Below are positions 4,923 through 28,603 of a stretch of 28,603 nt of DNA, one piece after another. The first letter of the stretch is position 1. Each line of letters opens with the position of its first letter. The position numbers and the translations under genes were made by a program. A model generated the notes under the pieces. That model searched no databases. It was given only the letters and a program-made list of their open reading frames with translations, and was not told the origin of the DNA. Origin of the DNA: Armatimonadota bacterium (GTDB taxonomy: Bacteria; Sysuimicrobiota; Sysuimicrobiia; Sysuimicrobiales; Humicultoraceae); contig JBBIJB010000027.1 in assembly GCA_037446215.1 (NCBI GenBank), positions 1-28,603 of the forward strand. The letters run 5' to 3'.

Positions 4923-4963
4923 CGGTTTCCTCCTCGTTGCCATAGTGGGGGCTCTGGATGGTC

Positions 4964-5198: not shown

Positions 5199-5226
5199 GC
5201 TTGTATGGTGGGTCTGGTCAGACGGC

Positions 5227-7732: not shown

Positions 7733-9676
<1,944 letters not shown>

Positions 9677-9682
9677 ACGGCA

Positions 9683-9711
9683 ATTGTACGGGGGCCCCCG
9701 TGGCCGTGCAA
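9683..9711 (-). promoter_or_regulatory. Sigma-70/sigma-A promoter for a leaderless acs mRNA
   Basis: Minus strand TTGCAC (9711-9706), 17 nt, TACAAT (9688-9683), 6 nt, GTG start. No Shine-Dalgarno. Confidence 0.7.
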
Positions 9712-9736
9712 GGAGCTTGGGACCCCGGCCTGGAAT
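9709..9736 (+). promoter_or_regulatory. Putative sigma-H-type promoter of the coxS-like gene (CAAGG-N19-GAAT)
   Basis: CAAGGagcttgggaccccggcctgGAAT, 35 nt upstream of GTG 9771. Confidence 0.5.
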
Positions 9737-9770
9737 GGATTCACATCCCAACGCGGCGGTGAGTGGGGAA

Positions 9771-13713: not shown

Positions 13714-13726
13714 CCGGAGGTTTGGG

Positions 13727-14305
13727 ATGAAGAAGCGGTGGGTGTGGGTCGGGGTCGTGGTGGCGGCAGCGGGGCTGGCCGCGGGAGGGTTCTACTACTA
13801 CGGGCTCCGCACAAGGCAGGCCGCGCAGCCCCAACGGCCGAGAGATCCGGGGTTCCTCGTGATAGCGTCCATACGCGCGCTCGAGCGCAACGAGGAGACC
13901 CGGCTCACAAAGGAGCAGGTCGTGCGCATCCTGCCCTTCGTGAAGGCGCTCAAGGACGTCCCCACGTCGGACTCCGAGGCGGCCGCGGTGATCGCGCGGG
14001 CAGTTGTCGAGGCGTTGACACCGGAACAGCGCGCCACGCTGGAGCAGATGCGAAAGCGCCTGCAGGAGGCGGCCCGCCAGCGAGGCTCGGCACCCGGGAT
14101 CCCCGGTGCGCCGGGAGGAGGAGTCGCAGGGCCGGGTCTCGGAGGCCCGGGCGGTCCTGGAGGCCCAGGCGGTCCTGGCTTCGGCCCGGGCGCAGGAGCA
14201 GGGGCAGGCGGTGCCGGCATGCTCAGCGATGAGGAGCGGGCCGAGATCCGCAAGCGCACCTTCGAAAGGGTGATACGATATCTGGAACGCAGGGCAAGGT
14301 CGTAG
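13727..14305 (+). CDS. Membrane-anchored periplasmic protein with LTxxQ motifs and a Gly/Pro-rich insert
   Basis: GGAGG RBS before ATG 13727. MKKRWVWVGVVVAAAGLAAGGFYYY anchor, LTKEQ and LTPEQ motifs, (GGP)4 tract. Confidence 0.82.
   Translation: MKKRWVWVGVVVAAAGLAAGGFYYYGLRTRQAAQPQRPRDPGFLVIASIRALERNEETRLTKEQVVRILPFVKALKDVPTSDSEAAAVIARAVVEALTPEQRATLEQMRKRLQEAARQRGSAPGIPGAPGGGVAGPGLGGPGGPGGPGGPGFGPGAGAGAGGAGMLSDEERAEIRKRTFERVIRYLERRARS
14141..14176 (+). repeat. Two tandem 18-bp units encoding GGPGGP
   Basis: ggaggcccgggcggtcct and ggaggcccaggcggtcct (one mismatch), in frame in the hypothetical gene. Confidence 0.8.
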
Positions 14306-14342
14306 GTCCCCCGGGGCCACACCCAGGAGGATGGGAGGAGTC

Positions 14343-15626
14343 ATGCGCACCACGGCGTTCATGGTTTCACTGCTGCTGCTAGGCACCCTAGCGCCAGGGC
14401 TGATGTCCAAGGCAGACGCCCAGACCCCGCGGCCGCACGTGCTGGCCGAGCTGGTCGCGATGGCTGATCAGCGTAATCCCGCGATAGCCGCGGCTCGCCA
14501 GTCGGTGGCCGCGGCCGAGGCCAGGGTCTCGCTGGCCAGGGCCGGCAGGGGGCCCACGGTCACGGCGACGGGCAGCGGCGCAACCGCCGGGGGAGGAACC
14601 CCCACCTCGACGCCCTCGTGGTCGAGCTCCACCGGCATATCGGCCTCGTACGTCGTCTACGACAACGGGCAGATGGTCATCGCAGTGCGCCAGGCCGAGG
14701 CTAACCTCAAGGCCGCCCAGATGGCGCTCGAGGCCGTCCGGCAGGACGTGGCGCTCACGGTGGCCGTCGCCTACGTCAACGTCCTGCGGGCCGAGCGTAC
14801 GGTGCTGCTCCGCCAGCAGGTCCTGGTGCAGAGCCAGGAGCTGCTGCGAGTTGCCGAGGGTCAGTTCCGGGCAGGCGTGGTACCGCGCGCCGACGTAGTG
14901 CGCGCGCAGTCGGGTCTGGCCTCGGCCGAAGGCGAGTTGATCGCCGCCCGCAACGCGGTCGACCAGGCCAAGGCGGTTCTCAACGTCGCTCTGGGGCAGG
15001 GACCCGCGGGATCGATCGCGGTCGCTCCGGCGCCGGCAGTGCCGACCCTGACGGTTTCGCAGGCCGATCTGGTGAGGCTCATCGAGCAGCGGCCCGAGGT
15101 GCGGCGCGTGCTGGCCGAGATAGAGGCGGCCGAGGCCGCCCTCGAGCTCGCGAGGGCCGCACGCGGTCTGCGTGCCACCCTGGACGGACGCGCGACCTAC
15201 CACTTTGCGCCGAACATCCAGACCACCTACTCGCTGGGCACCACGCTCAGCTTTCCGGTCTCGGACGCCGGCCGGATAGACTCCGGCGTCGCGGAGGCCA
15301 CGGCCGGCCTCGCGGGCGCGCGCGCCCGAGTGGAGACCGCCCGGCTGTCCGCGCAGCAGCAGGCGCTTGGAGGGATGCTCGGCATCCTGGATGCTCGGGC
15401 ACGGATCGCCAGCGCCAGGGCCGGCCTGGCCTTTGCCCAGGAGTCGCTGCGCCTCGCGCAGGGGCGATACGCGGCAGGCGCCGGTCCGATTCTGGAGGTC
15501 GTGGACGCGCAGACCGCTCTCGTACAGGCCGAGGTGACGCTTGCGCGCGCGGAGTTCGACGAGCTGGCCGCCGTCATCACGCTCCGCCACGGCCTGGGCC
15601 GCTCGGTCGTGGACGGCGGGATCTAG
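14343..15626 (+). CDS. TolC-family outer membrane efflux protein
   Basis: Signal peptide, NPAIAAARQ, two OEP repeats (QFRAGVVPRADVVRAQ; RYAAGAGPILEVVDAQ) and QRPEV. GGAGGAG precedes ATG 14343. Confidence 0.92.
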   Translation: MRTTAFMVSLLLLGTLAPGLMSKADAQTPRPHVLAELVAMADQRNPAIAAARQSVAAAEARVSLARAGRGPTVTATGSGATAGGGTPTSTPSWSSSTGISASYVVYDNGQMVIAVRQAEANLKAAQMALEAVRQDVALTVAVAYVNVLRAERTVLLRQQVLVQSQELLRVAEGQFRAGVVPRADVVRAQSGLASAEGELIAARNAVDQAKAVLNVALGQGPAGSIAVAPAPAVPTLTVSQADLVRLIEQRPEVRRVLAEIEAAEAALELARAARGLRATLDGRATYHFAPNIQTTYSLGTTLSFPVSDAGRIDSGVAEATAGLAGARARVETARLSAQQQALGGMLGILDARARIASARAGLAFAQESLRLAQGRYAAGAGPILEVVDAQTALVQAEVTLARAEFDELAAVITLRHGLGRSVVDGGI

Positions 15627-15664
15627 TAGACCCCCCGCGGGAGGCATAAGGGGAGTCAACGGCG

Positions 15665-15670
15665 TAGAAT
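15665..15670 (+). promoter_or_regulatory. -10 box for a probable leaderless ctpA transcript
   Basis: TAGAAT, 6 nt, ATG 15677. No Shine-Dalgarno and no clear -35. Confidence 0.5.
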
Positions 15671-15676
15671 AGAGAG

Positions 15677-17062
15677 ATGCGGACCCGCCTGGCCCTACTC
15701 GTAGCGGCACTGCTCGCGGCCGCCGCGTTTGCACCCGCGGCTCCGGCGCAGCAGCTAGATGCCGGCGCCTACGTCTTCCTCGAAAGCTACCGGATACTCA
15801 GGGATGAGAGCCTCGCCTCGCCCAGCGTCGAGGTACTCCTCCAGGGAGCCGATGCGGGTCTTCGATCGATGCTGCGCACAGAGGGACGGGATCCTTCGGC
15901 CCTCAGCCCCCTCTACCTGACAGGAGGGGAGCGGGTGGACCTCGACCAGGTCCTGCAGAGGATAGCCCAAGCCCAGGGGCTGTCCCGGGGGCGGTCAACC
16001 GCCGCCCATGCGGCCATCTCCGGAATGGTGGCGGCGCTGAGGGACACGAACAGCGCCTTCTTCGACCCCGACGCCTTTGCCCAGTTCCTGCGCCGCACGC
16101 AGGGCGACGAGTTCGTGGGCATCGGAATAGTGATCGAGGAGAGGGCCGGCCAGGTCGTCATCGTCGAGGTGATGTTGGGGACACCGGCCTCCGAGGCGGG
16201 CCTGCGGGAGGGCGATGTAGTAGGCGCGGTGGACGGTGTCCCCACTTCCGGACTCACCCTCGACCAGGTCAGCCAGATGATTCGCGGCCTGGAGGGCACA
16301 CAGGTCATGCTGGCGATCCAGCGTTCCGGCACGGAGGCGGCCGTTCAGTTCACGATCACCCGCAGGCGAATACTGCAGCGAGTCGTGGCCACGCACACCC
16401 CCGCGTCGGGAGTCGGGCACCTCCGGGTGATGCAGTTCACCCAGCATGCGCCAGACATGGTCTCCTCCGGACTGCGGGAGCTGCTCGAAGGCAAGGCACG
16501 GGGCATAGTCCTGGACCTGAGGGGTAATCCCGGCGGGCTCCTCGACGCCGCGGTCAGCATAGCGAGCCACTTCCTGGAGAGGGGACCGGTCGTCACCCTA
16601 GAGACCGGCCGAGGCACCTCGACAACCTACCTGGTGCGGCCGCGTGCTCCGAGGCACACGGGGCCTCTGGTGGTGCTGGTCGATAGGGGCAGCGCCAGCG
16701 CCTCCGAGGTGGTTGCCGGCGCCCTGCAGGACTCCGGGATCAAGCTCGTGGGCACCAGGACCTACGGCAAGGCCACGGTCCAGGCGATCTTCCGGCTGCG
16801 CGACGGCAGCGGCATCAGGCTAACGGTTTCGCGGTATCTCACGCCGCGGGGCCGCGACGTCGAGGGAAGGGGCCTTCACCCGGATGTCGAGGTGGCAACA
16901 GGCGGGGCCGCGATCGGCGGCTCCAACGACGCCCCGCTGAACCTCGCCATCTCTATGCTTGCCCAGGCGGGTCTGGGACTCCCCGGCCCGGCCGCTGTTC
17001 CCTCACTCCAGGCGACCGCCAGGACCCCGGTCGCCTTTGCCTCCGGGCAGAAGGGGGACTGA
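15677..17062 (+). CDS. S41A C-terminal processing peptidase (CtpA-like, PDZ domain)
   Basis: Signal peptide, PDZ (FVGIGIV...GLREGDVVGAVDG), DLRGNPGGLL, catalytic SASASE and TYGKATVQ, RYLTPRG...GLHPD. Confidence 0.94.
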   Translation: MRTRLALLVAALLAAAAFAPAAPAQQLDAGAYVFLESYRILRDESLASPSVEVLLQGADAGLRSMLRTEGRDPSALSPLYLTGGERVDLDQVLQRIAQAQGLSRGRSTAAHAAISGMVAALRDTNSAFFDPDAFAQFLRRTQGDEFVGIGIVIEERAGQVVIVEVMLGTPASEAGLREGDVVGAVDGVPTSGLTLDQVSQMIRGLEGTQVMLAIQRSGTEAAVQFTITRRRILQRVVATHTPASGVGHLRVMQFTQHAPDMVSSGLRELLEGKARGIVLDLRGNPGGLLDAAVSIASHFLERGPVVTLETGRGTSTTYLVRPRAPRHTGPLVVLVDRGSASASEVVAGALQDSGIKLVGTRTYGKATVQAIFRLRDGSGIRLTVSRYLTPRGRDVEGRGLHPDVEVATGGAAIGGSNDAPLNLAISMLAQAGLGLPGPAAVPSLQATARTPVAFASGQKGD

Positions 17063-18829
17063 ATGCCGGTACTGGGGATCGTTCGCCGTGGACGCTACTT
17101 CGACTCCGTGACGCTGATGCTGGCACAGAAGCAGGCGCGCGAGCAGCCCGGGGTCGACGAGGCCGGCGTGGTGATGGCGACCGACGCCAACAAGGCCCTG
17201 CTCACAGACAGCGGCCTGGGGTTCACCGACCTGGCCGGTGCGGGGTCGGAGGATCTGGTGGTCGTGGTGCGGGCGGCGAGCGAGGAGCAGGCCAGGGCGG
17301 CCGCGGCGGTGGCGGAAGAGGGGTTGACGAGACGACGCCCTGCGGACGCAGGCGGCTCCTACCGCCCCAAGACGGTCGCCACCGCGGTCCGGCAACTGCC
17401 TGAGGCCTCGGTCGCCGTGGTCTCCGTGCCCGGGAGGTTTGCGCACTCGGTGGCGCGCGAGGCGCTCGACGCGGGTCTGCACGTGCTCCTGTTCTCCGAC
17501 AACGTACCTATAGAGCACGAGATCGAGCTCAAGGCACGGAGCCGCGAGCGAGGGCTGCTCCTGATGGGGCCCGACTGCGGGACCGCGATCGTCGGCGGGG
17601 CCGCGCTTGGATTCGCCAACAGCGTGAGGAGCGGCCGCATCGGCCTGGTTGGGGCGGCGGGGACGGGGCTGCAGGAGGTATCCTCCCTGATCCACCGGTA
17701 CGGCGGCGGAATCACACACGCCATCGGCACAGGAGGACGCGACCTCTCCTCGGCGGTCGGCGGGGCGACGATGCTGCAGGGGGTTCGCGCCCTCGCGCTG
17801 GACCCGAGGACCCACGTGATCGTGCTGGTGAGCAAGCCGCCCTCGGCCGAGGTGGCGGGCAAGATCCTGGCCGCGTCCGCGGCGGCCGGCAAGCCGGTGA
17901 TCGCGGCGTTCGTGGGGGCGCACGTGGAGCCCTCCGGACAGGTGCGGGGCGCCGCCACGCTCGAGGAGGCGGCCCGGGCGGCGGTTGAGATCGCCTACGG
18001 GTTTGAGGTTCCCCCCCCGGCCCTGCGCTCGCTTCCATCGCAGGAGGCGGGAAGGCTCTCCTCCGCCCAGCGCTACATCCGGGGGCTCTACAGCGGGGGA
18101 ACGCTGGGCTACGAGGCGCTCGTGATGCTGCGCCAGCACGTGGGGCCGGTGCTCTCCAACTCCCCCCTGAACGCCTCCGAGACCCTGGAGCCGGTGACCC
18201 GGAGCCGCGAGCACTCGGTGATCGACATGGGCGGGGACGAGTTCACGCAGAGCCGGCTCCACCCGATGCTGGATCCGACGCTTCGTCTGCAGCGGATCCG
18301 CCAGGAGGCGGCAGACCCCGAGAGCGCGGTCCTCCTGCTCGACGTCGTCCTCGGATACGCCAGTCACCCGGATCCGGCAGGAGCGCTCGCTCCCACCATC
18401 CGAGAGATCTGCGAGAGCAGCCGAGGATCGGGTTGCCGCATCTGCATAGTAGGATCGGTCTGCGGGACCGACGACGATCCGCAGATGGCGTCCTCGCAGC
18501 GTGATGCGCTGATCGATGCCGGGATGCTTGTCGAGGCGAGCAACGCGAGGGCGGTGCGCCTGGCAGGCCTGATCGCCGAGGCGCGAGGCGCCCGGGGAGG
18601 GCCCGCTGAGCCCCCCCGCATCTCGGCGGCGGGATCGGCGCCTGGCTGGCCGGAGGTGGGAGCGATCAGTTCACTGCTCGGCTCGCGCCCAGCCGTGGTC
18701 AACGTCGGGCTCGATCTGTTCGCGGAGAGCCTGGCCGCGCAGGGCGTTCCGGTGGTGTCGGTCGACTGGCAGCCGCCTGCCTCAGGGAAGACCCACCTGC
18801 TCGACCTTCTCGACAGACTCGAGGCGTAG
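17063..18829 (+). CDS. fdrA: FdrA / AllF-like acyl-CoA synthetase-fold protein (oxamate carbamoyltransferase subunit homolog)
   Basis: YFDSVTLM, VMATDANK, SVPG, FSDNV, MGPDCGT, GTGGRDL, RGLYSGGTL, DMGGDEFT...HPMLDP, LDVVLGY and the C-terminal NVGL...DWQPPA domain. Confidence 0.93.
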   Translation: MPVLGIVRRGRYFDSVTLMLAQKQAREQPGVDEAGVVMATDANKALLTDSGLGFTDLAGAGSEDLVVVVRAASEEQARAAAAVAEEGLTRRRPADAGGSYRPKTVATAVRQLPEASVAVVSVPGRFAHSVAREALDAGLHVLLFSDNVPIEHEIELKARSRERGLLLMGPDCGTAIVGGAALGFANSVRSGRIGLVGAAGTGLQEVSSLIHRYGGGITHAIGTGGRDLSSAVGGATMLQGVRALALDPRTHVIVLVSKPPSAEVAGKILAASAAAGKPVIAAFVGAHVEPSGQVRGAATLEEAARAAVEIAYGFEVPPPALRSLPSQEAGRLSSAQRYIRGLYSGGTLGYEALVMLRQHVGPVLSNSPLNASETLEPVTRSREHSVIDMGGDEFTQSRLHPMLDPTLRLQRIRQEAADPESAVLLLDVVLGYASHPDPAGALAPTIREICESSRGSGCRICIVGSVCGTDDDPQMASSQRDALIDAGMLVEASNARAVRLAGLIAEARGARGGPAEPPRISAAGSAPGWPEVGAISSLLGSRPAVVNVGLDLFAESLAAQGVPVVSVDWQPPASGKTHLLDLLDRLEA

Positions 18830-18847
18830 ATGCCGGAGGGCACCCAG

Positions 18848-20092
18848 ATGGATATTAAGGCTGCAAACGCGGTAGTGCTCGAGCGGATAGTCGCGTCACA
18901 GCCCTACCTGACAGGAGTGGGCCGGGCCGCCGACCTGATACCGGGGATGCGTCGAGACCTGATCCTGCATGCCGGCCCTCCCATCGAGTGGTCGAGGATG
19001 TCCGGACCCCTCAAGGGCGCGGTCATAGGAGGGTTGATCTTCGAGGGCCTGGCCGCCGACGAGCGGGAGGCCCTGTCACTCGCCGAACGGGGGGGCGTCG
19101 AGTTCGCGCCGTGCCACCACCACGCGGCCGTCGGACCGATGGCAGGGGTGACGACGGCGTCGATGATGGTCTACGCCGTCGAGAACCGGGCCTTCGGCAA
19201 CAAGGCGTTCTCGAACTTCAACGAGGGCTACGGGAAGGTGCTCCGCTTCGGCGCGTACAGCGAGGAGGTCCTTGCCAGGCTCAGGTGGATCAACGACACC
19301 CTGGCCCCGGCGGTGGGCCAGGCCCTTGTGCGGGCCGGGGGGCTGGACATGAAGGGTCTGATCTCCCTGCAGCTCACTATGGGCGACGAGGGGCACAACC
19401 GCAACAGGGCCGGCTCGGCGACCTTCGGCCGGATGCTGGCGCCGCACCTGGCCCGGATCGGACTCGAGGCCGAGACCCTGGAAGCGGTGCTCAGGTACTT
19501 CGCCGACAACGACCTGGCGGTACTGAACGCGGTGATGGCTTCGTGCAAGGCGACGATGGACGCGGCGCACGGGGTGGAAGGTAGTACCGTGGTGACGTGC
19601 ATGGCGCGCAACGGTACCGACTTCGGCATCCGCGTCTCGGGGCTCGGCGATAGGTGGTTCGTCGCGCCCGCGGAGGTTCCGGTGGGGCTCTACTTCCCTG
19701 GGTTCTCGAGCGAGCACGCCAACCGCGACATCGGTGACTCTACCATCACGGAGACCGCCGGCATCGGCGCGTTCGCGATGGCCGCGGCCCCGGCCATCGT
19801 GAAGTTCGTGGGCGGCACGCCTTCCGAGGCGGTCGCCGCGACCCTCGAGATGTACGAGATCACGGTAGGCGAGAACCCCGCGTTCGGGCTGCCTCCACTG
19901 GACTTCCGCGGGACCCCGACAGGGGTGGATATCAGGAAGGTAGTGCGCACGGGAATAACCCCACGGATCAACACCGGGATAGCGCACCGAGAGCCCGGCG
20001 TCGGCCAGGTCGGGGCAGGATTGGTGAGGCCGCCCATCGCCTGCTTCGAGCAGGCGGTCGAGGCGATGGCCGCACAGATTGGAGGGGTTTGA
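18848..20092 (+). CDS. ylbE: DUF1116 YlbE / AllG-like protein
   Basis: ILHAGPPI, PCHHHAAVGPMAG, NEGYGKVLRFGA, MGDEGHNRN, MARNGTDFGIRVSG, DIGDSTITETAG and PRINTGIAHREPGVGQVGAG. GGAGG precedes ATG 18848 (the track starts at 18830). Confidence 0.93.
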   Translation: MDIKAANAVVLERIVASQPYLTGVGRAADLIPGMRRDLILHAGPPIEWSRMSGPLKGAVIGGLIFEGLAADEREALSLAERGGVEFAPCHHHAAVGPMAGVTTASMMVYAVENRAFGNKAFSNFNEGYGKVLRFGAYSEEVLARLRWINDTLAPAVGQALVRAGGLDMKGLISLQLTMGDEGHNRNRAGSATFGRMLAPHLARIGLEAETLEAVLRYFADNDLAVLNAVMASCKATMDAAHGVEGSTVVTCMARNGTDFGIRVSGLGDRWFVAPAEVPVGLYFPGFSSEHANRDIGDSTITETAGIGAFAMAAAPAIVKFVGGTPSEAVAATLEMYEITVGENPAFGLPPLDFRGTPTGVDIRKVVRTGITPRINTGIAHREPGVGQVGAGLVRPPIACFEQAVEAMAAQIGGV

Positions 20093-20550
20093 TGAAAGCG
20101 GAGGCTAGGATCAGCGAGCTGGGGCTGCAGCTCCCCGTCGCGCCCCGACCGGTCGCCAACTACGTCCGCGTCGTGCGCACGGGCAACCTGCTCTTCGTCT
20201 CGGGGCACGGCCCCTACCGGGACGGCGCGCTGCAGTTCTTGGGAAAGGTCGGCGGCGAGATCACCCCGGAGGAGGGCTACGAGGCCGCCAAGCTGGTCGC
20301 GCTCAACTGCCTGGCATCGGTCAAGGACGCCCTGGGAGACCTGGATCGCGTCAGGAGGGTGGTGAAGCTGCTCGGCATGGTCAACGCCGTCCCCGGGTTC
20401 GAGGGGCACCCAGAGGTGATCAACGGCGCCTCCGACGTCCTGGTCCAGATATTCGGAGAGGCCGGACGCCACGCGCGCTCGGCGGTCGGCATGGCGTCGC
20501 TGCCGCGCAACATCTCGGTCGAGATCGAGATGGTGCTGGAGATAGACTAG
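20092..20550 (+). CDS. Rid/YjgF-family protein (Rid1-like imine deaminase)
   Basis: PVANYV, LFVSGHGP, INGASD, GRHARSAVG (catalytic Arg retained) and VEIE. ATG overlaps the ylbE stop (TGATG). Confidence 0.92.
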   Translation: MKAEARISELGLQLPVAPRPVANYVRVVRTGNLLFVSGHGPYRDGALQFLGKVGGEITPEEGYEAAKLVALNCLASVKDALGDLDRVRRVVKLLGMVNAVPGFEGHPEVINGASDVLVQIFGEAGRHARSAVGMASLPRNISVEIEMVLEID

Positions 20551-21304
20551 CCCCGCACACGAAACGTGATCGGCTCGCTCGCGCCCCGAACCGAGATCAC
20601 CGCCAGACGCGGGGCGATCGTCCGTATGACCTCCGCCGGGGTCGCGGCGTCGAACACGACCAGGTCGGCCGCTCCTCCCTCCTCAAGCCTGTGGTCGGTT
20701 AGGCCGAAGCAGGCTGCCGCCCGAGAGGTCACCATGTCGAGGAGCACGGCGAGCTCGTCGTGGCCGATGCATACGTTGATCCCTGCCGCGAGCAACTCCT
20801 TGACCCTCGTGAAGCCGCGGCGCACAGGGTAAGCGTCGAATCGGCCCTGCAGCACCGAGTTGTCCAGCGGGTTTGTGACGAAGTGTACGCCCGCGTGCCG
20901 TACCCATCCGATCAGACGGCTGGCGTAGGCGTTGTTGCACGAGTGCATGGCCGTGGTGTGGCACGACGTCACGCTCGCCGTAGTCGCGGGTCCACTCGTA
21001 GTGGGGTATGCCTCCCACCAGATCCGCGCCTGCCTCCAGCGCGCGCACGAGCAGCTCCTCTCCCCGCGGAAACGAGTAGATCCCCTGCTGGGGAAACGCG
21101 ACGATCTGCAAGGTGACGGTCTCGCGCCACCCCTCCCTGACCTCGACCATCGCCCTGAGCGCCGTCAGGTTGGGATCGCAGACATCAACGTGCGTCCTGA
21201 TGTGGGTGACGCCGCAGGTGGACGTGGGTCTCCACCGGGGAAGTTGTCACGAGCCTCCCGGCGGCGTCTACTTCCTGCGCTCCGCGCCCGGGGATCTCCG
21301 GCGC
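20547..21304 (-). pseudogene. codA: Cytosine deaminase (CodA-type amidohydrolase) pseudogene with multiple internal deletions
   Basis: Collinear CodA blocks in shifting frames: EVDAAGRLVTTSPVETHVHL | GVTHIRTHVDVCDPNLTALRAM...LQIVAFPQQG...GGIPHYEWTRDYG | HTTAMHS...NPLDNSVLQGRFDAYPVRRGFTRVKELLAAGINVCIGHD | ELAVLLDMVT...ADLVVFDA. The HCDE and DPWYPLG segments and the N-terminus are missing. Confidence 0.88.
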
Positions 21305-21332
21305 GCAGGTTATCGTCTCTGGCGCATTGAAT
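21305..21332 (+). promoter_or_regulatory. Putative sigma-H-type promoter of the cyclase operon (GCAGG-N19-GAAT)
   Basis: GCAGGttatcgtctctggcgcattGAAT, about 80 nt upstream of the cyclase start. Confidence 0.55.
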
Positions 21333-21414
21333 CAACCCCACCGGGGCGACCGCTCCGATCGTACCGCGACCAAACAGGCAGGTCCAGGTGATAGGAACCC
21401 ACGGAGGTGAGTTG

Positions 21415-22245
21415 ATGAAGCCGTTCGACCTATCGAGAGCGCGCGTGCTTGACCTGTCCCAGAACTTCAGCGTGGACTCTCCACCCTTCGCGTACTACGA
21501 GGGCCCGACGATCAAGTGGGTCAAGAAGATGGCGTTCGAGGGCGTCAACGCCCAGCACATCAGCAGCACCAACCACATCGCGACGCATCTCGATGCCCCC
21601 CTACACTTCAACGACCCGGGCCCGGACGTGGCAGGGATACCGCTGGCCACGCTGGTCGGGCCGGCCTGCATAGTAGACCTCCAGCAGTTTGGGATCGGCG
21701 ACTACCAGATCTACGGACCGAAGCACTTCGAGGAGTGGGAGAAGAAGTACAACACCAAGATCGAGCGGGGCGACATCCTTGTCATCCACACCGGATACCA
21801 CGCCTACTACAACGAGGACTGGTCTATGGAAACGAAGAAGCAGCATCCCGACGCCGGCGCCGACCTGCCGCGCTCGTTCCTGCGCCACCCCGGGCCGCAG
21901 GCCGAGTTCTGCGACTGGGTGCTCGATCGGGGCATCAGCTGGATGGCCATCGATGCCATCTCGACGGCCCATCCGTTCAACACGAAGGTCAGGGACGCCA
22001 GGCGCGACCTGATTCCCGAGGTTGAGGCCAAGATCGGGATGTCGATGGATGAGGCGTTCCCCTGGCCGAAGGACTATCAGGCCACCCACACCAAGCTCTT
22101 CCCCAAGGGTGTGTTCCACATAGAGAACGCGGGCGGAGAGATCGACCTGGTCCTCAACCAGCGCGTATGGGTGGGGTGCTTCCCCTTCAGGTTCAAGGGG
22201 GGCGAGGCGGCGTTCTGCCGGTTCGTGGCGTTCGTCGAAGGGTAA
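21415..22245 (+). CDS. Cyclase-family metal-dependent amidohydrolase (kynurenine formamidase/isatin hydrolase-like)
   Basis: VLDLSQ, HIATHLDAPLH (HxGTHxDxPxH variant), IERGDILVIHTG, H...HIEN and FPFRFKGGEAAFCR. GGAGGTG precedes ATG 21415. Confidence 0.9.
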   Translation: MKPFDLSRARVLDLSQNFSVDSPPFAYYEGPTIKWVKKMAFEGVNAQHISSTNHIATHLDAPLHFNDPGPDVAGIPLATLVGPACIVDLQQFGIGDYQIYGPKHFEEWEKKYNTKIERGDILVIHTGYHAYYNEDWSMETKKQHPDAGADLPRSFLRHPGPQAEFCDWVLDRGISWMAIDAISTAHPFNTKVRDARRDLIPEVEAKIGMSMDEAFPWPKDYQATHTKLFPKGVFHIENAGGEIDLVLNQRVWVGCFPFRFKGGEAAFCRFVAFVEG

Positions 22246-22254
22246 GCGATCCGC

Positions 22255-23442
22255 GTGAAGACCCCACTCGAAGACCTGCTCGTTGTGGATCTCACGCGTG
22301 CTCTCGCAGGTCCTTACTGCACCCTGATGCTGGGCGACTTCGGCGCCCGCGTCGTGAAGGTCGAGGTCCCCGAAACGGGTGACGACACCCGCGGCTGGGG
22401 ACCTCCCTTCGTCGGGGGCGAGAGCACCTACTTCCTGAGCGTCAACCGTAACAAGCAGAGCCTCACCCTCAACCTCAAGCACCCGCAGGGGCAGAGCATC
22501 CTCTGGCGCCTTGTGGAGCGCGCAGACGTGTTGGTGGAGAACTTCCGCCCTGGGATCATGGGGCGCCTGGGGTTCCCCTACCAGGCCGTTGCCGCGGCCA
22601 ACCCCGGCCTCGTCTACTGCGCGATCTCCGGGTTCGGCCAGGACGGCCCTTACAGGGAGCGCACGGCCTACGATCTCATAGTCCAGGGGATGGGCGGGCT
22701 GATGGGGATCACCGGCGACGAGGGCGGGGCTCCCGTGAAGGTGGGGGTGGCCATAACGGACATCGCCGCCGGGATGTTCGCCGCCTACGGGATCCTGGCG
22801 GCGCTCCGGGTCCGCGACCGCACCGGGAGGGGCCAGTTCGTGGACGTCTCGATGATGGATGGCCAGGTGGCGTGGAAGACCTACCAGGCCGGGAACTTCT
22901 TCGCCACCGGCGAGAACCCGAAGAGGCTGGGCAGCGCCCATCCCTCGATCGTCCCCTATCAGGCCTTCAGGACCGCCGACGGCTACGTCAACGTGGCCGT
23001 GGGCAGCGAGGCGATTTGGGGCCGCTTCGCCTCCACGGTGGGTGCGCCGGAGCTGGCGACCGATCCCCGATTCCGGACCAACAAGGACCGCGTCGCCGGC
23101 CGCGACGCCTTGATAGCGCTGCTCGAGCCCCTCCTTGCCGGCAGGACCACGGCGGAGTGGGTCGCGGTCTTCGAGGAGGCGGGGGTGCCCAGCGGCCCCA
23201 TCTACTCGCTCTCGGAGCTCTTCGGCGATCCTCAGGTCCGCCACCGTCGAATGGTGGCGGAGGTCAGGCATCCGAAGGCGGGGGCGATCGGCCAGACAGG
23301 GATCCCCGTCGCGCTCTCAAAGACGCCGGGTAGGATTGCGGCTCCCCCGCCGGTGCTGGGGGAGCATACCGAGGCGATCCTCGCAGAGCTCGGCTATCCA
23401 CCCGAGGAGGTCGCCGCGCTACGCGTCGACGGGGCGATCTAG
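22255..23442 (+). CDS. Class III CoA-transferase (CaiB/BaiF/Frc family)
   Basis: DLTRALAGPYCT, GDDTR, NRNKQS, ADVLVENFRPG, ISGFGQDGPY, AYDLIVQ, catalytic Asp in AITDIAAG and LGEHT. Confidence 0.95.
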   Translation: MKTPLEDLLVVDLTRALAGPYCTLMLGDFGARVVKVEVPETGDDTRGWGPPFVGGESTYFLSVNRNKQSLTLNLKHPQGQSILWRLVERADVLVENFRPGIMGRLGFPYQAVAAANPGLVYCAISGFGQDGPYRERTAYDLIVQGMGGLMGITGDEGGAPVKVGVAITDIAAGMFAAYGILAALRVRDRTGRGQFVDVSMMDGQVAWKTYQAGNFFATGENPKRLGSAHPSIVPYQAFRTADGYVNVAVGSEAIWGRFASTVGAPELATDPRFRTNKDRVAGRDALIALLEPLLAGRTTAEWVAVFEEAGVPSGPIYSLSELFGDPQVRHRRMVAEVRHPKAGAIGQTGIPVALSKTPGRIAAPPPVLGEHTEAILAELGYPPEEVAALRVDGAI

Positions 23443-23489
23443 AGGGCCGCATCGGCCCAGGCTGAGTCGGCGGGAATCTGGGAGGGGCC

Positions 23490-25211
23490 ATGACCCGGAA
23501 CGAGAGTTGCGGCAGTTGCGGGCTAGCCACCCCACGCGACGGGCTTCGCGGGGCGCTTTGGACATGCTCCTCTTGCGGCCACCACTTCTCGATGCCCGCA
23601 AGGGACAGGATCGACTCCCTCGTAGACCCCCGGTCGTTCAAGGAGTTGGCAAAGGGCCTGGTGTCGGTCGACCCGCTCCGCTTCTCGGACAAACGCGCCT
23701 ACCGGGCGCGGCTGCTGGAGGCGCGGAGGCAGACGGGCCTGCGGGAGGCGGTGGTCACCGGCATCGCGAAGCTGGACGGCCTCCCGGTGGTCCTGGCGGT
23801 CTTCGACTTCGCGTTCCTCGGAGGCACGATGGGCTCGGCCGTGGGGGAGAAGATCGCCGATGCGTTCGAGGTGGCGACGCGCAGGCGATGGCCAGTGGTC
23901 TCGGTCGCGTCAAGCGGCGGCGCCCGCATGCAGGAGGGGATGCTGTCGCTGCTGCAGATGGCGAAGACCTCGGCCGCGCGCGCGCGCCACCACGCGGCAG
24001 GCCTGGCGCACATCTCGGTTCTCACCAACCCGACGTTCGGCGGCGTGGCGGCGAGCTTCGCCTCGCTCGGTGACGTGCTGATCGCGGAGCCGGGAGCGCA
24101 GGTGGGATTCGTAGGGCCGCGCGTGATAGAGGCTACGCTCAAAGAGACGTTGCCTCCCGAGTCGCACCGTGCCGAGCGGTTGTTCGCCGGGGGAATGGTT
24201 GACCTCCTGGTAGGCAGGCGTGAGCTCCGCGAGACCATCTCGTATCTGGTGCGCCACCTGCGACGCACACGCCGCCCGCGGGGGCGAGCGAGGAGGGAGC
24301 ATGCTCCGGCGCCCGAGCGGGCAGCGGGCACCCCTGCCTGGGAGGTAGTCAAGCTCGCCCGGCGCCCCGACCGCCCAACGACCATGTCTCACATCGGCAG
24401 GTTGCTCGCCCGGTTTGCGGAGTTGCACGGCGACAGGCAGTTCGGCGACGATCCCGCGGTAGTAGGCGGGCTGGGTGAGATCGACGGGCACACGGTCGTG
24501 GTCGTGGGCCAGGAGCGGGGAGCGACCCCAGAGGAGGCGGAGCGGCGCAGAGGGGGCATGGCCTATCCGGAAGGCTACCGCAAGGCCCTCCGCCTGATGC
24601 ACCTCGCCGCGAAGTTCCGGCTTCCCCTGGTAACCTTCATAGACACCCCCGGCGCCTATCCGGGCTACGAGGCCGAGCAGCGCGGGGTCGCGCAGGCGTT
24701 GGCCCACAATCTCCAGGCGATGGCGCTGCTGCCCACGCCGATCGTGGCAGTGGTGGTGGGAGAGGGCGGCAGCGGAGGCGCGCTGGCACTCGGCGTCGGG
24801 GACCGTGTGCTGATGATGGAGAACGCCTACTTCTCCGTCATCTCGCCGGAGGGCGCCTCCGCGATCCTTTACAGGGACCCATCCCGGGCCGCAGATCTTG
24901 CCGCGGCGCTGAAGCTCACGGCACCTGACCTATTGAGGCTCGGGATCATAGACGAGATAGTGGCCGAGCCCCCGGGCGGCGCCCACACGGATCCCGCCGC
25001 CGCGACGGAGATGCTGCGAGGGCGGATCGTCTCGGCTCTTGACGCCCTGGAGCCGGTTTCCCCCGAGAGGCTGGTGCGCCGGCGCTACGAGAAGTACCGG
25101 GGAATCGGTCAGGTTGGCAGGTACTGGCGAGAGGTCGTGCTGGGCGAGGTGGGGGACGTCGTGGAGAGACTCGAACGCCGCCTGCCCCGACGCGGAGGCC
25201 CTGAAGGGTAG
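23490..25211 (+). CDS. accDA: Fused acyl-CoA carboxylase carboxyltransferase beta-alpha (AccD-AccA fusion)
   Basis: N-half: C4 zinc finger (CGSC...CSSC), GGTMG, SGGARMQEG, PTFGGVAAS, GFVGPRVI. C-half: ELHGDRQFGDD, PEGYRKALR, FIDTPGAYPG, GEGGSGGALA, SVISPEG, EPPGGAH. One uninterrupted ORF with an Arg-rich linker. Confidence 0.93.
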   Translation: MTRNESCGSCGLATPRDGLRGALWTCSSCGHHFSMPARDRIDSLVDPRSFKELAKGLVSVDPLRFSDKRAYRARLLEARRQTGLREAVVTGIAKLDGLPVVLAVFDFAFLGGTMGSAVGEKIADAFEVATRRRWPVVSVASSGGARMQEGMLSLLQMAKTSAARARHHAAGLAHISVLTNPTFGGVAASFASLGDVLIAEPGAQVGFVGPRVIEATLKETLPPESHRAERLFAGGMVDLLVGRRELRETISYLVRHLRRTRRPRGRARREHAPAPERAAGTPAWEVVKLARRPDRPTTMSHIGRLLARFAELHGDRQFGDDPAVVGGLGEIDGHTVVVVGQERGATPEEAERRRGGMAYPEGYRKALRLMHLAAKFRLPLVTFIDTPGAYPGYEAEQRGVAQALAHNLQAMALLPTPIVAVVVGEGGSGGALALGVGDRVLMMENAYFSVISPEGASAILYRDPSRAADLAAALKLTAPDLLRLGIIDEIVAEPPGGAHTDPAAATEMLRGRIVSALDALEPVSPERLVRRRYEKYRGIGQVGRYWREVVLGEVGDVVERLERRLPRRGGPEG

Positions 25212-25230
25212 AGGGCGGGAGGCGTCGAAC
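25203..25230 (+). promoter_or_regulatory. Putative sigma-H-type promoter of the NCS2 permease (GAAGG-N19-GAAC)
   Basis: GAAGGgtagagggcgggaggcgtcGAAC spans the accDA stop and lies about 190 nt upstream of the permease start. Confidence 0.45.
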
Positions 25231-25422
25231 CAAACGCAAGTCCCAGGACAGAATGCGACGCGGCGCCCGGGCTCCTGCCAGACCTTTGGGCAGCACACCG
25301 TTGCGGCCACGCGCGTTCGAGGGACGGGTGAGCACGATCACCCGGGCAGGGAGACGCAAGCAGGGGAGGTGATCGCAGAGACCGCAGGAGGGCAGTCTTC
25401 CACCAAGAAGGGGGGCGGATAG

Positions 25423-26832
25423 ATGGCAACGGAAGTCCGCAGGGGAGAGCTCATCTACAGCATCGATGACATCCCCCGCCCGTTCAGCAGAGCCTTCTTC
25501 CTAGGTGTGCAGCACGTCCTCACGATGTTTGGGGCCACCGTATCGGTCCCGCTACTCCTCGGGCCGGCGATGGGTTTGAGCCAGGCCCAGATCGCGACCC
25601 TGGTTGGGTCGGTCATGCTGGCCTCCGGCGTAGTCACCCTGCTTCAGGTCCACTGGGGATCTCGCCTGCCGATCGTCCAGGGGGTCTCGTTCTCCTTCCT
25701 AGGCCCCTTCTTCGCGATCATCGGCCAACACAAGGGTCCCCTCGCGATGCAGTACATCGCCGGCGCCATAATGACGGGCAGCATCGTCGAGATGGCGGTC
25801 GGCCACTTCCGCTGGATCGGCAAGCTGCGTCGGTTCATAAGCCCCGTCGTCATCGGGCCGGTGATCATGCTGATCGGCCTGGCGCTGTTCAAGGTGGGCG
25901 CGCCCAAGGCCGGAACCTACTGGCCGATCGCCGCGCTGGTAATCGTGTGCATATTCTGGTTCTCGCAGTTCCTGTCGCGGAGCAGCATGTTGTTCAGGCT
26001 GTTCCCGATCCTGTTGGCGGTGCTGGTAGGGTGGCTGGTATCGTGGTTCTTCAGCGCGATCGGCAGCTTCGGGCCGGAGCACCCCGCCTACGTGAGCCTC
26101 CAGGTAGTGCGGGAGTCGAAATGGTTCCGTCCACCGTGGGGCGAGGCCGGATGGATCCTGCCGTGGGGCTTCCCCAAGTTCAGCCTAGCGTTCTTCCTGG
26201 CGATCCTAGCCAGCTACCTCGCATCGATGATCGAGTCGTTCGGGGACTACCACTCGGTCTCCTACATGAGCCGGCTCTCTGACCCCAGCGAGGAGTTGAT
26301 CAACAAGGGGATCCGCGCGGAGGGCGCGGGCTGCTTCTTCACCGGCCTCTTCGGCGGGTTTGCCAGCACCAGCTACTCCGAGAACATCGGGCTGATCGGG
26401 ATCACGAGGGTCGCGAGCCGCTACGTCGTGACCGTCGGAGCGTTCGTCCTGATCTTCCTCGGTGTCTTCGGCAAGTTCGGCGCCCTGGCCGCCACGCTGC
26501 CCGGACCGGTGGTGGGCGCGATGTACTGCGCGCTCTTCGGGCTCATCGCCGCAATCGGCGTTCAGCAGGTGGCGAGGGCCGACCTGCGCAGCGACCGCAA
26601 CCTCCTGATAGTCGGCTTCTCCCTGTTCATGGGCCTGAGCCTTCCGGCCTACTTCACCGGCGTGCCGGAGCTCGGCTTCGCGGCCAACAAGGTGGTGATA
26701 GCGGGAGCGCCCTGGCTCGCAGAGATGATCAACATCATCGGATCCACCGGGATGGCCGTGGCGGCCATCTTCGGGCTGATCCTCGACAACCTGCTGCCCG
26801 GCTCGCCCGAGGAGAGGGGCATCGGGAGCTAG
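25423..26832 (+). CDS. NCS2/NAT nucleobase:cation symporter (uracil-xanthine permease family)
   Basis: GVQHVLTMFG, RLPIVQGVSF, VIGPVIMLIG, ESFGD, NAT motif SYSENIGLIGITRVASR and about 13 hydrophobic segments. Confidence 0.95.
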   Translation: MATEVRRGELIYSIDDIPRPFSRAFFLGVQHVLTMFGATVSVPLLLGPAMGLSQAQIATLVGSVMLASGVVTLLQVHWGSRLPIVQGVSFSFLGPFFAIIGQHKGPLAMQYIAGAIMTGSIVEMAVGHFRWIGKLRRFISPVVIGPVIMLIGLALFKVGAPKAGTYWPIAALVIVCIFWFSQFLSRSSMLFRLFPILLAVLVGWLVSWFFSAIGSFGPEHPAYVSLQVVRESKWFRPPWGEAGWILPWGFPKFSLAFFLAILASYLASMIESFGDYHSVSYMSRLSDPSEELINKGIRAEGAGCFFTGLFGGFASTSYSENIGLIGITRVASRYVVTVGAFVLIFLGVFGKFGALAATLPGPVVGAMYCALFGLIAAIGVQQVARADLRSDRNLLIVGFSLFMGLSLPAYFTGVPELGFAANKVVIAGAPWLAEMINIIGSTGMAVAAIFGLILDNLLPGSPEERGIGS

Positions 26833-26854
26833 CGGCAAGGGTCCGACCGGGGGA

Positions 26855-26881
26855 GTCCTTCGAGGCAGGCCCTCGGAGGAC
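26855..26881. terminator. Hairpin between the convergent NCS2 and EamA genes
   Basis: GTCCTTCGAGG-caggc-CCTCGGAGGAC: 11-bp stem with one G-T pair, no U-tract. Confidence 0.5.
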
Positions 26882-26903
26882 GGATAGGCCGGCGGGGCGT
26901 CTG

Positions 26904-27800
26904 TCAGATCGACGGACGCCCCGCCGCGCTTTGGGGAGGGCGCGGCGGGAAGAGCTGGAGCGAGGCGATCGATGCCAGGATCAGCGCAGCGCCGGCGATC
27001 CCACGCCCGGTGAGAGTCTCACCCAGCAGCAGCGCCGCCGCAACCGCTGCGACGACCGGCTCGAGCGTCGCGGTCAGGCTCGCGGTCCGGCTGTCTATGA
27101 AGCGCAGCCCGCCCAGGAAGAGCCCGAAGGGCAGGAGCGTGGCGAAGACAACGATGAAGGCGATCAAGCCCCACTCCTGTAGGGTGTAGGGCTGCAGGTA
27201 GGCCCTCCAGGGAGGAACGTAGAGGCTCCAGAGCACCGCCCCTGCGCCGAACGCGTACAGCAGCATCTCCCAGGGGGTCAGCTTGTTGCCCTGTGACCGC
27301 CCAATCAGGACCCACGCGGCAAATCCCGCGGCCGATGCGATTCCTGCGATCGCCGCCTTCGGGGTCACGGCCAGGCCCTCCGGACCGACCACCAGCAGGT
27401 AACCCCCAAGGAGAGCGCCCGCCAGCGCTATCAGCTGGGCCGCCGTCAGCCGCTCGCGGAGCATCAGCGCCCCGTAGGTCATCACAAGCGCGGGCGCGGT
27501 GTATTGGAGGAAGATCGCCGTCGTCACGCTCGCCAGGTTGATGGTGACGTAGTACGTGGACTGCGTGAACGCGATAGCCGCCCCTAGGGGGATGAGCCGG
27601 ACGGCAGCGCCAGTTGGGATCCGAATCCGCCACCCCCTCACGAGGAAGACGGCCAGCGTCAGGACGAAGACCCCGGTCAGCCTTATCTCGACGAGCGCGA
27701 GGGGGTCCACCGCGCCCGAGAACAGCGATTTGGCGACCACACCTGCCACGCCCCACAGCATGGCAGCGGCGATCACGGCGGCGTAGCCCTTCCAGTGCAT
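26904..27800 (-). CDS. EamA/DMT-family transporter
   Basis: AAMLWG, LQYTAPA, LRERLT, TLEPVVA and LLGETLT, about 10 TM segments. ATG directly follows the DUF2877 stop. Confidence 0.93.
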   Translation of the reverse strand: MHWKGYAAVIAAAMLWGVAGVVAKSLFSGAVDPLALVEIRLTGVFVLTLAVFLVRGWRIRIPTGAAVRLIPLGAAIAFTQSTYYVTINLASVTTAIFLQYTAPALVMTYGALMLRERLTAAQLIALAGALLGGYLLVVGPEGLAVTPKAAIAGIASAAGFAAWVLIGRSQGNKLTPWEMLLYAFGAGAVLWSLYVPPWRAYLQPYTLQEWGLIAFIVVFATLLPFGLFLGGLRFIDSRTASLTATLEPVVAAVAAALLLGETLTGRGIAGAALILASIASLQLFPPRPPQSAAGRPSI

Positions 27801-28603
27801 CTATCCCTCCAGGCGCTCCCAGGCCCAACAGAACCCGGCCAGCGCATCCGCCCCCGAGGTCTCTCCGACGCGGAGCAGCCGGCGGGCGGCTCTCCTCAGG
27901 TCGTCCCGCTCCCCTCCCAGGCTCCGCACAAGCCGGTGCCACGGCAGGGAGGCATCGCCCGCACACGCCGCCTCCAGATAGGCCGCGCTTATCCGACTGG
28001 TTCTGGACAGGGCGGCGTCTATGAGGACCTTGCGCGCAAGCGCCCCTTCCGTCTCCGGAGCGCGGTGCAGAGTGGTGAGCGCGTTCGCGATCCCCACAAG
28101 CAGGTCATCCCCCGACGGGGTCAGTCCTGGGCCCAGCCCGGCGATCCTGGCAGAGACCGCCTCCCTGGCTTCGCAGGCCGCCGCCTCGCAGAGCGGATCC
28201 GCGAGCAGCCGAGCCATCGAGTTGAGCCCGTCCCGAAGCGACTCGCTCAAGGCCGCGGCCACCTGTCCGGCACGGCTTTCCCGGGAGCCCAACACCGCAG
28301 CCGCGACGCTCTCCCTCGGCGCCCGTGAGAGGAGTTCGGCCACTACGGCCTCCCGCGAACCTGCGGGGGCCCGCTCTGCCCGCGGCAGGCGCGCGTCCCA
28401 GACCTCGGCACCCCCGAGGTCGATCCTCGTCCCATCTATGCTCAGCAGCGCTCCGCCGACCGCGGCAGGCATGCCCGGCGCGATGCCCGCGATCCGTGTC
28501 CCGCGCTCCAGGGAGATCGAGATCGGGCCCCGCTCCAGATCATGGGACGCCAGCGCCACTAGCCTGCCGCCCAGATCGAGGTATGCGCTGCGCTCGAATA
28601 CCG
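27801..28603 (-). CDS. ylbF: DUF2877 YlbF / AllH-like protein, 5' end outside the window
   Basis: GLGPGLTPSGDDLLVG, RTSRIS and VGETSGADALAG. The frame stays open to the window edge (VFERSAYLDLGGRLVAL...). Confidence 0.88.
   Translation of the reverse strand, partial: VFERSAYLDLGGRLVALASHDLERGPISISLERGTRIAGIAPGMPAAVGGALLSIDGTRIDLGGAEVWDARLPRAERAPAGSREAVVAELLSRAPRESVAAAVLGSRESRAGQVAAALSESLRDGLNSMARLLADPLCEAAACEAREAVSARIAGLGPGLTPSGDDLLVGIANALTTLHRAPETEGALARKVLIDAALSRTSRISAAYLEAACAGDASLPWHRLVRSLGGERDDLRRAARRLLRVGETSGADALAGFCWAWERLEG

Follow-up and report, generated by a model that had tools for sequence, protein, structure and literature searches.

The 28,603-nucleotide stretch analysed here (the window) is the entire contig C27 of a metagenome-assembled genome (MAG) of an Armatimonadota bacterium, assigned in GTDB to the Sysuimicrobiota; the MAG comprises 149 contigs and 2.16 Mb, is 91% complete, and its record holds nothing past position 28603 of this contig. 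The gene content of the window is best explained if it represents roughly one half of a conserved nucleobase-catabolic supercluster; the remainder, namely the L, M and S subunits of a molybdenum (Mo) hydroxylase, maturation genes and an asparaginase-family amidase, would lie on contigs C83 and C48 of the same genome. These genes probably serve one pathway, in which the Mo-hydroxylase initiates attack on an N-heterocycle and a complex of the AllF-AllG-AllH (AllFGH) type phosphorolyses the resulting ureide. A more specific route, leading from uracil through barbiturate and ureidomalonate to carbamoyl phosphate and malonate, and onward through malonyl-CoA to acetyl-CoA, is tentative and falls a little short of an even chance. 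We infer all substrates and reactions from gene content, homology, linkage, co-absence and motif conservation, which are themselves directly observed.

In the proposed route, uracil or thymine would be imported or, where the cytosine deaminase and permease pair CodBA is intact, uracil would be formed from cytosine. A CoxL-like Mo/FAD/FeS hydroxylase would yield barbiturate, the ring of which would be opened by a cyclase-family metallo-amidohydrolase to give ureidomalonate (N-carbamoylmalonamate). Ureidomalonate, as ring-opened barbiturate, is a homolog of oxalurate longer by one carbon, and the FdrA-AllG-AllH complex would phosphorolyse it to carbamoyl phosphate and malonamate. An amidase, for which the candidates are an asparaginase-family enzyme in relatives of family f1 and an amidase-signature (AS) amidase in Chloroflexia, would then release malonate and NH3. 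Malonate would be converted to malonyl-CoA by a class III CoA-transferase and malonyl-CoA to acetyl-CoA by removal of its carboxyl group by a fused AccD-AccA paralog (AccDA'), and carbamate kinase, encoded elsewhere, would turn carbamoyl phosphate into ATP, NH3 and CO2. A sequence-only reading of the window had outlined a similar pathway, which is partly supported: its expectations about genomic context were borne out, but a carbamate kinase linked to the cluster was not found, and its direct passage of malonamate into a CoA ester for decarboxylation has to be changed, since the CoA ester of malonamate is not open to decarboxylation and a second amidase must act first.

Genes in the window were called from Pfam and NCBIfam profile scans, the latter with cut-offs, and every gene listed in the sequence-only reading was recovered in its place. 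All three AllFGH subunit families (FdrA, DUF1116/AllG and DUF2877/AllH) are encoded. The FdrA/AllF-like subunit (17063-18829, plus strand; 588 aa, with CoA_binding and Ligase_CoA domains; NF004760, 521 bits, cut-off 433) is followed by the AllG/DUF1116-like subunit (18830-20092, plus strand; 420 aa; PF06545, 304 bits), and the AllH/DUF2877-like subunit (27801-28603, minus strand; PF11392, 88 bits) has lost its 5' end at the contig end. The closest solved structure to the window FdrA is 3dmy, itself an FdrA. FdrA shares 38% identity with E. coli AllF and 40% with YahF, and AllG shares 51% with E. coli AllG and 50% with YahG; overall, the three subunits (38%, 51% and 32-40% identical to E. coli AllF, AllG and AllH, respectively) are no closer to these proteins than to the YahFGE paralogs. 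Among relatives, identity to the orthologs is 50-73% for FdrA and 33-49% for AllH, and an AllG ortholog (68-84%) is present in most. Second AllG copies (46-55% identity) also occur in many relatives. The genome of the window has a lone AllG/DUF1116 paralog of its own on contig C66 (4253-5497; 51% identical to the window AllG), located between an oligopeptide ABC ATPase gene and a malic enzyme gene with no FdrA or AllH near.

The AllFGH family was characterised only in 2024; AllFGH is its sole characterised member and oxalurate the known substrate (PMC11326118). This favours an alternative in which the complex is a true oxamate carbamoyltransferase ending a purine/allantoin route, with oxamate hydrolysed by the cyclase or the asparaginase and oxalate activated by the CoA-transferase CaiB; the Mo enzyme could then be xanthine dehydrogenase, and CaiB does match the CoA:oxalate transferase model, at 310 bits, under the cut-off of 522. 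We nevertheless consider it quite improbable, as the window proteins are no nearer AllFGH than YahFGE and as xanthine dehydrogenase models score far under their cut-offs (418 bits versus 780). Furthermore, neither the window nor C83 nor the flanks examined in relatives yielded an allB, allC, allD or allE gene, so that all-type genes do not flank the locus, an arrangement that would have spoken for oxalurate. Scans of the window ORFs likewise agree with the absence of allantoinase, allantoate amidohydrolase and ureidoglycolate dehydrogenase reported in the sequence-only reading. Neither Ldh_2 gene of the genome is with allantoin genes, one standing with Tct transporter genes and the other with IclR, PfkB, M20 and DctM genes, and on chemical grounds a carboxyltransferase of the acetyl-CoA carboxylase (ACC) type is implausible for decarboxylation of oxalyl-CoA.

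The argument for a common function rests on linkage. ORFs around the relatives' loci were called with a codon log-odds caller trained on the window, since a simple GC3-based caller gave spurious antisense ORFs, and neighbour annotations were limited to ORFs with a Pfam or NCBIfam match. A cyclase ortholog (78-92% identity) is present in 35 of 40 relatives of the order, a tally that takes in the unpublished genomes G015 and G024, and one further genome has a partial copy. Around the cyclase in 20 fetched loci, caiB, accDA and allG were each found in 14, fdrA in 11 and allH in 8, so that the recurrence foreseen for the neighbours caiB and accDA was observed. A pattern scan of 185,579 species genomes returned 182 relatives, and further loci were taken from the best 80 of these 182; fdrA, allG, the cyclase, caiB, accDA, allH and the Mo subunits occur together in 13 of the 80. 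AllFGH or Mo genes are found in 25 of the 28 loci having at least 8 kb on each side of the cyclase, the exceptions being L043, L044 and L102.

Across the order of CSP1-3/Sysuimicrobiota MAGs, AllFGH, the cyclase, CaiB, AccDA and the Mo genes are thus linked in several gene orders, in agreement with the conserved synteny that had been predicted. In family f4, a compact fdrA-allG-cyclase-caiB-accDA cluster converges on allH-MoS-MoM-coxG-MoL. In genera g2, g3 and g9, codA-caiB-accDA-allH-MoSML-asparaginase occupies one site and allG-cyclase another; FdrA in this split arrangement is on the same contig, 12 kb from the codA-caiB site, in G009, on the AccDA' contig in G023 and G019, and on a different contig in G008. 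Because the linkage survives such reshuffling, a common function can be argued. In addition, orthologs of the cyclase and of AllG are missing, along with the fused AccDA paralog, from three genomes that are 89-99% complete (G026, G033 and G036); this co-absence pattern is broken by two incomplete genomes, G029 (72%), which lacks only the cyclase, and G007 (73%), which lacks only AllG.

The association extends beyond the phylum. Among the best 80 of the 182 relatives, 19 loci have a cyclase with 75-80% identity to that of the window followed by MoM-MoS-MoL, and most of these are titled Chloroflexia or Chloroflexota, with a few titled 'uncultured bacterium'. Pfam scans of three Mo-bearing Chloroflexia loci show an AS amidase gene after the Mo genes in each; in the CSP1-3 clusters examined, PF01425 (AS amidase) was not found, save for one match about 8 kb from the cyclase in L017. 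G042 has the locus twice, and at a distance of 10-20 kb from the cyclase it encodes FdrA-AllG-AllH with an Acs-like ligase. G045 gave matches only for AllG and the Acs-like gene (L115), about 6 kb from the locus end, and the unpublished G041 has AllH, an Acs-like gene and an adjoining AllG. The window also encodes an Acs-like AMP-forming acyl-CoA ligase (7733-9829, minus strand; 698 aa; NF001208, 679 bits), which shares 55-58% identity with the Acs-like ligase encoded after FdrA-AllG-AllH in Chloroflexia, whereas the second Acs of the genome, on contig C8, is only 40% identical to the latter. Since the window gene is the genome's best match to the Chloroflexia ligase, it may belong to the system, of which it is a probable peripheral member.

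Because the window is a whole contig, the region beyond 28603 was read from another contig and from relatives. In the relatives, the genes immediately upstream of AllH encode a CoxL-like Mo/FAD/FeS hydroxylase of three subunits, and the order is MoL-MoM-MoS-(DUF4126)-AllH-EamA. The pair of AllH followed by EamA is conserved in them; in the window, the EamA-family transporter (26904-27800, minus strand; 298 aa; PF00892) is directly downstream of AllH, and both are on the opposite strand from, and convergent with, the genes from fdrA to the NCS2 permease. Divergent from the relatives' Mo operon are DUF47, two PHO4 genes, an asparaginase-family gene and the CoxG, CoxD, CoxE and XdhC/MobA maturation genes. 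Contig C83 of the window's own genome carries MoS, MoM and MoL (72-80% identical to the same-genus copy), DUF47, the two PHO4 genes, a dihydropyrimidinase gene and the start of the asparaginase gene, with the series continued on C48. The prediction of xdh or cox subunits past the window end is thereby confirmed, in relatives upstream of AllH and in the genome itself on C83. No sequence overlap was found between the window end and C83 or between C83 and C48, so it is synteny with relatives alone that joins the three contigs.

Two further observations concern these genes. The DUF47 gene (TIGR00153) and the two tandem PHO4-family phosphate/sulfate permease genes (C83:4059-6698, L111), divergent from the Mo operon, keep this arrangement in G001, G006 and G020 (L028, L029 and L030), and a tie to the phosphate-consuming AllFGH step is possible. 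Within the window, an orphan ORF at 9603-10238 (plus strand) encodes a [2Fe-2S] small subunit of the Mo-hydroxylase family (Fer2_2, 114 bits; 49% identical to the cluster MoS); it overlaps the 3' end of the Acs-like gene, has no L or M subunit beside it, and may be what is left of an earlier Acs-Mo arrangement of the kind present in Chloroflexia.

Form I CO dehydrogenase carries the active-site loop AYxCSFR. In the Mo large subunit of the cluster this loop is PYRGAGR, both in the genome itself and in the copies from the same genus, family f4 and Chloroflexia, and a search through every frame of the 2.16-Mb assembly gave no form I loop of the AYxCSFR type; CoxL-like genes with the PYRGAGR loop number only two in the genome, on C83 and C141. 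The top solved relatives of the large subunit include quinoline 2-oxidoreductase and 6-hydroxypseudooxynicotine dehydrogenase, an N-heterocycle dehydrogenase, and the next-best matches of the Mo subunits are archaeal glyceraldehyde oxidoreductase models (alpha, 653 bits; beta, 259 bits; both under cut-offs). The CoxL-like copy here is more likely a heterocycle hydroxylase than a CO dehydrogenase. It resembles the form II CoxL-like Mo-hydroxylases and quinoline 2-oxidoreductase in its L/M/S set, its CoxG, CoxD, CoxE and XdhC/MobA genes and its xYRGAGR loop, and differs from form II CoxL-like enzymes in lying within a nucleobase cluster, in an operon shared with AllH; the form I motif is absent.

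One could suppose instead that the neighbours have no pathway in common: AccDA' would be an extra isozyme of ACC, and the CoxL-like enzyme would oxidise CO or an aldehyde. The name that NCBIfam gives to the Mo large subunit agrees with this, as does a study in which CoxLMS in all CSP1-3 MAGs was taken as CO oxidation (PMC11962464). Such a supposition is barely credible, because the linkage persists through several rearrangements and spans phyla, because three genomes are without components jointly, and because no form I motif was found anywhere in the genome.

The cyclase, a putative metal-dependent amidohydrolase of family PF04199 (110 bits), is encoded at 21415-22245 on the plus strand; its ORF extends from 21388, and the likely start is the ATG at 21415, which is preceded by a GGAGGTG Shine-Dalgarno sequence. 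The motif HxxxHxDxPxH (H63, H67, D69 and H73) is invariant in all 14 orthologs compared and aligns with that of kynurenine formamidase 4co9. The protein shares this metal-binding motif and the assignment to the hydrolase fold with kynurenine formamidase and the PF04199 family, but it is about 65 residues longer than kynurenine formamidase, and the arylformamidase equivalog model does not reach its cut-off (36 bits versus 223). We propose from its family and context that it opens the ring of the hydroxylated base. Its identity of 77-91% across the order and 74-80% into Chloroflexia/Chloroflexota is far above that of its neighbours FdrA and AllH; this is unusually high for a catabolic hydrolase and suggests strong structural constraint or recent lateral transfer.

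A different order of events would resemble the Rut pathway. The cyclase would open uracil itself to 3-ureidoacrylate, AllFGH would convert this to carbamoyl phosphate and 3-aminoacrylate, the Rid protein would yield malonate semialdehyde, and the Mo enzyme would oxidise the latter to malonate, to be followed by CaiB and AccDA'. This scheme would give a role like that of RutC to the Rid/YjgF-family protein of the window (20089-20550, plus strand; 153 aa; PF14588, 94 bits), and the glyceraldehyde oxidoreductase matches of the Mo subunits, although under cut-offs, would suit the semialdehyde step. However, Rid was seen only in family f1 relatives among the fetched loci, which marks it as an accessory gene, and the recurring amidase or asparaginase would be left without a role. 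Moreover, 3-ureidoacrylate is not an acyl-ureide like oxalurate, and we know of no precedent for the hydrolytic opening of aromatic uracil. Overall, this scheme is very unlikely.

Downstream of the cyclase, the class III (CaiB/BaiF) CoA-transferase (22255-23442, plus strand; 395 aa; PF02515, CoA_transf_3, 454 bits) has as its nearest solved structure SUGCT, a dicarboxylate enzyme (9br6, 370 bits). It reaches no NCBIfam equivalog cut-off, and we propose from its homology and setting that it acts as a malonate CoA-transferase. The adjoining AccDA' (23490-25211, plus strand; 573 aa) scores 342 bits with TIGR00513 (cut-off 319) and 306 bits with TIGR00515, just under the cut-off of 317. It is a second copy and is not in an accB/accC operon; the housekeeping AccDA, a 623-aa protein encoded in an accDA-accB-accC operon on C8, is 45% identical to it. 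In an alignment with E. coli AccD and AccA, AccDA' keeps the CxxC...CxxC cysteines and both Gly-Gly motifs, at what we take to be the zinc-ribbon and oxyanion positions of the ACC carboxyltransferase. That AccDA' might have no zinc ribbon was considered, as the Pfam model Zn_ribbon_ACC is silent on it, and rejected, as the four cysteines align with those of E. coli AccD. A carboxyltransferase paralog of ACC with its catalytic motifs kept indicates a malonyl-CoA intermediate, and AccDA' looks like a working malonyl-CoA carboxyltransferase. As a separate observation, the housekeeping accD and accA are fused in this genome (623-aa ORF, C8:640-4358, L007) and apparently also in G012 and G016, whereas they are two adjacent ORFs in most relatives.

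In having AccD/AccA-type domains that act on a malonyl thioester and a transferase step that loads malonate, this part of the cluster resembles the malonate decarboxylases (Mdc/Mad) as well as the carboxyltransferase of ACC. Unlike Mdc/Mad, no acyl carrier protein, MdcA or membrane beta subunit was found, the carrier here would be free CoA, and AccDA' scores just 66 bits with the MdcD model and 49 bits with that for MdcE (cut-offs 278 and 237); the housekeeping ACC, for its part, is a separate operon.

The supply of pyrimidines is suggested by further genes in and beside the cluster. The remnant of the cytosine deaminase gene codA (20559-21301, minus strand) consists of three fragments in three frames, which correspond to residues 34-62, 104-195 and 240-424 of the 425-aa CodA that a same-genus genome carries intact, with at least four internal deletions, and the decay noted in the sequence-only reading is thus that of a true pseudogene. 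Its conversion of cytosine to uracil by CodA is supported by relatives that carry intact codA and codB inside the cluster: their CodA exceeds the cytosine deaminase cut-off (NF005748, 512 bits versus 438), and the cytosine permease CodB follows codA in G020 (461 bits, cut-off 326). Most genomes of the genus carry an intact codA; G001 has none, and the copy in the window is decayed. An NCS2/NAT nucleobase permease (25423-26832, plus strand; 469 aa; PF00860, 299 bits), uptake genes of the Bmp/PnrA-type and NMT1-type ABC transporters, a 5'-nucleotidase gene and a dihydropyrimidinase gene (586 bits, cut-off 393) are also in or beside the cluster.

Searches for enzymes of other pyrimidine routes were made in five genomes. 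PreA-type dihydropyrimidine dehydrogenase gave only sub-threshold matches (best, 168 bits versus 335), and no urease alpha subunit was found over the cut-off, with positive controls; without urease, a route that releases urea would waste nitrogen. Barbiturase of the AtzD/TrzD family (PF09663) was found in none of the five, although this model was also silent in all 14 control genomes.

The same logic may apply to another ring. The Mo-hydroxylase might act on a different N-heterocycle, such as a purine analogue, a hydantoin, an imidazolone, orotate or a substituted pyrimidine, the cyclase would open it, and AllFGH would cleave the acyl-ureide so formed. The substrate of the Mo large subunit is not readable from its sequence. 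The nearest solved structures to the NCS2 carrier are SLC23 transporters (284 bits, versus 72 bits for UraA), and its best subfamily is xanthine permease (268 bits, under the cut-off). In a study of nitrifier MAGs, AllFGH homologs stand beside triuret and biuret genes (PMC12625717). On the other hand, the ACC-type carboxyltransferase paralog indicates malonyl-CoA specifically, chemical reasoning leaves barbiturate as the only one among the common ureides that gives a malonyl ureide, and CodBA inside the cluster supplies uracil. We therefore regard another ring as unlikely, and uracil, at the tentative strength given above, as the preferred substrate.

Several points weigh against this preference. 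The Mo large subunit passes the NCBIfam model NF040766 (CODH_aero_grp5; 999 bits, cut-off 950), which names it an aerobic CO dehydrogenase, and, as said, its substrate cannot be read from sequence. The organism itself has no functional codA; the NCS2 permease is nearer the SLC23/xanthine-type carriers than UraA, and its substrate is not readable from sequence either. The nearby dihydropyrimidinase, together with a carbamoylase, could represent a different pyrimidine route. An AlphaFold2 model of the cyclase, built from a 14-sequence alignment, has a mean pLDDT of 61 and values below 50 in the motif region, which is too poor for inspection of the active site. As for the amidase step, the compact clusters of family f4 have the cyclase as their single hydrolase, with none left to act as malonamate amidase, and a second amidase gene is not in every cluster. 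AccDA' looks biotin-dependent, the cluster has no gene for the biotin carboxyl carrier protein (BCCP), and a search of the five genomes for the beta subunit of carboxybiotin decarboxylase found none; the carboxyl group could be lost, or passed to the housekeeping BCCP and biotin carboxylase. Carbamate kinase, which the sequence-only reading had looked for beyond the window end, is present in five of five genomes, but no copy is linked to the cluster in the genome itself or in the relatives' loci, and both copies in the window's genome adjoin OTCase-type genes. Finally, the scheme assigns no role to Rid, to EamA or to the PHO4 pair of C83.

The closest known system is the oxamic transcarbamylase AllF-AllG-AllH of E. 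coli with the carbamate kinase AllK (PMC11326118). The two share the families FdrA, DUF1116 and DUF2877, and the reaction proposed here would be of the same type, the phosphorolysis of an N-acyl-urea to carbamoyl phosphate and an amide, with ATP gained through carbamate kinase and nitrogen kept by a urease-negative cell (PMC11326118). In E. coli, however, the allFGH(K) operon adjoins allE, allC and allD, whereas here AllH is in a separate, convergent operon behind the Mo subunits, there is no allECD and no linked carbamate kinase, and the genes nearby encode a cyclase, a CoA-transferase and a carboxyltransferase. The E. coli cluster yahE-yahF-yahG-yahI-yahJ, of unknown function, is alike in its paralogous FdrA/DUF1116/DUF2877 trio and in the adjoining amidohydrolase-family gene yahJ, but it has a linked carbamate kinase-like gene and is without Mo-hydroxylase, cyclase, CaiB and AccDA; the CodA of the relatives is a true cytosine deaminase that is 26% identical to YahJ.

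The classical oxidative pyrimidine pathway of Rhodococcus and Nocardia consists of uracil/thymine dehydrogenase, barbiturase and ureidomalonase. The pathway proposed here would share with it the intermediates barbiturate, ureidomalonate and malonate and a first step by a Mo-type dehydrogenase. It would differ in having a cyclase-family enzyme in place of barbiturase, in phosphorolysing the ureide to carbamoyl phosphate rather than hydrolysing it to urea, and in encoding the disposal of malonate in the same cluster. A full-text search, with most subscription journals outside its coverage, found no description of such a pathway.

A bolder statement is that this is a fourth, energy-conserving mode of pyrimidine degradation. 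A form II CoxL clade, at present annotated automatically as CO dehydrogenase, would be the uracil/thymine dehydrogenase, the cyclase a non-homologous barbiturase, and the AllFGH-type complex a ureidomalonate (malonurate) carbamoyltransferase that yields ATP via carbamoyl phosphate; AccDA' would run in reverse on malonyl-CoA and possibly pass CO2 to BCCP and biotin carboxylase, saving a second ATP. Taken as a whole, this is a distinct possibility, although more probably wrong than right.

The remainder of the window contains genes outside these subjects. An efflux operon encoding MacA/HlyD, a MacB ATPase, a MacB permease and a TolC-like OEP protein, followed by an S41 C-terminal protease gene (10311-17062, plus strand), lies between the Acs-like gene and fdrA and has the same place upstream of fdrA in same-genus genomes. 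At 1-4943 on the minus strand is a second nitrogen-compound cluster, which encodes a CN-hydrolase (deaminated-glutathione amidase-like, below the cut-off), a creatininase-family protein and an oligopeptide-type ABC transporter composed of two permeases and an SBP_bac_5 binding protein. Three plus-strand ORFs, at 5146-6315, 7192-7674 and 13649-14305 (389, 160 and 218 aa), have no Pfam match; the first two are also without an NCBIfam match, the third having been scanned against Pfam alone, and the codon model favours an antisense ORF at 5227-5742 over the first.

To our knowledge, no genes have yet been assigned with certainty to the enzyme that starts the oxidative pyrimidine pathway. The cluster offers concrete candidates for this enzyme and for non-homologous replacements of the next two, and each step of the pathway can be tested with recombinant proteins and with substrates that are commercial or easily made. 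The cluster also calls into question the common practice of taking CoxL-like genes in the genomes of CSP1-3 and Chloroflexia to mean CO oxidation. If the proposal is true, AllFGH would have a second substrate, and phosphorolysis would be a general means by which urease-negative bacteria save ATP and nitrogen from ureides. In that case, an uncultured bacterium of soil and hot springs would break down uracil in a manner that recovers its nitrogen and some energy rather than discarding urea.

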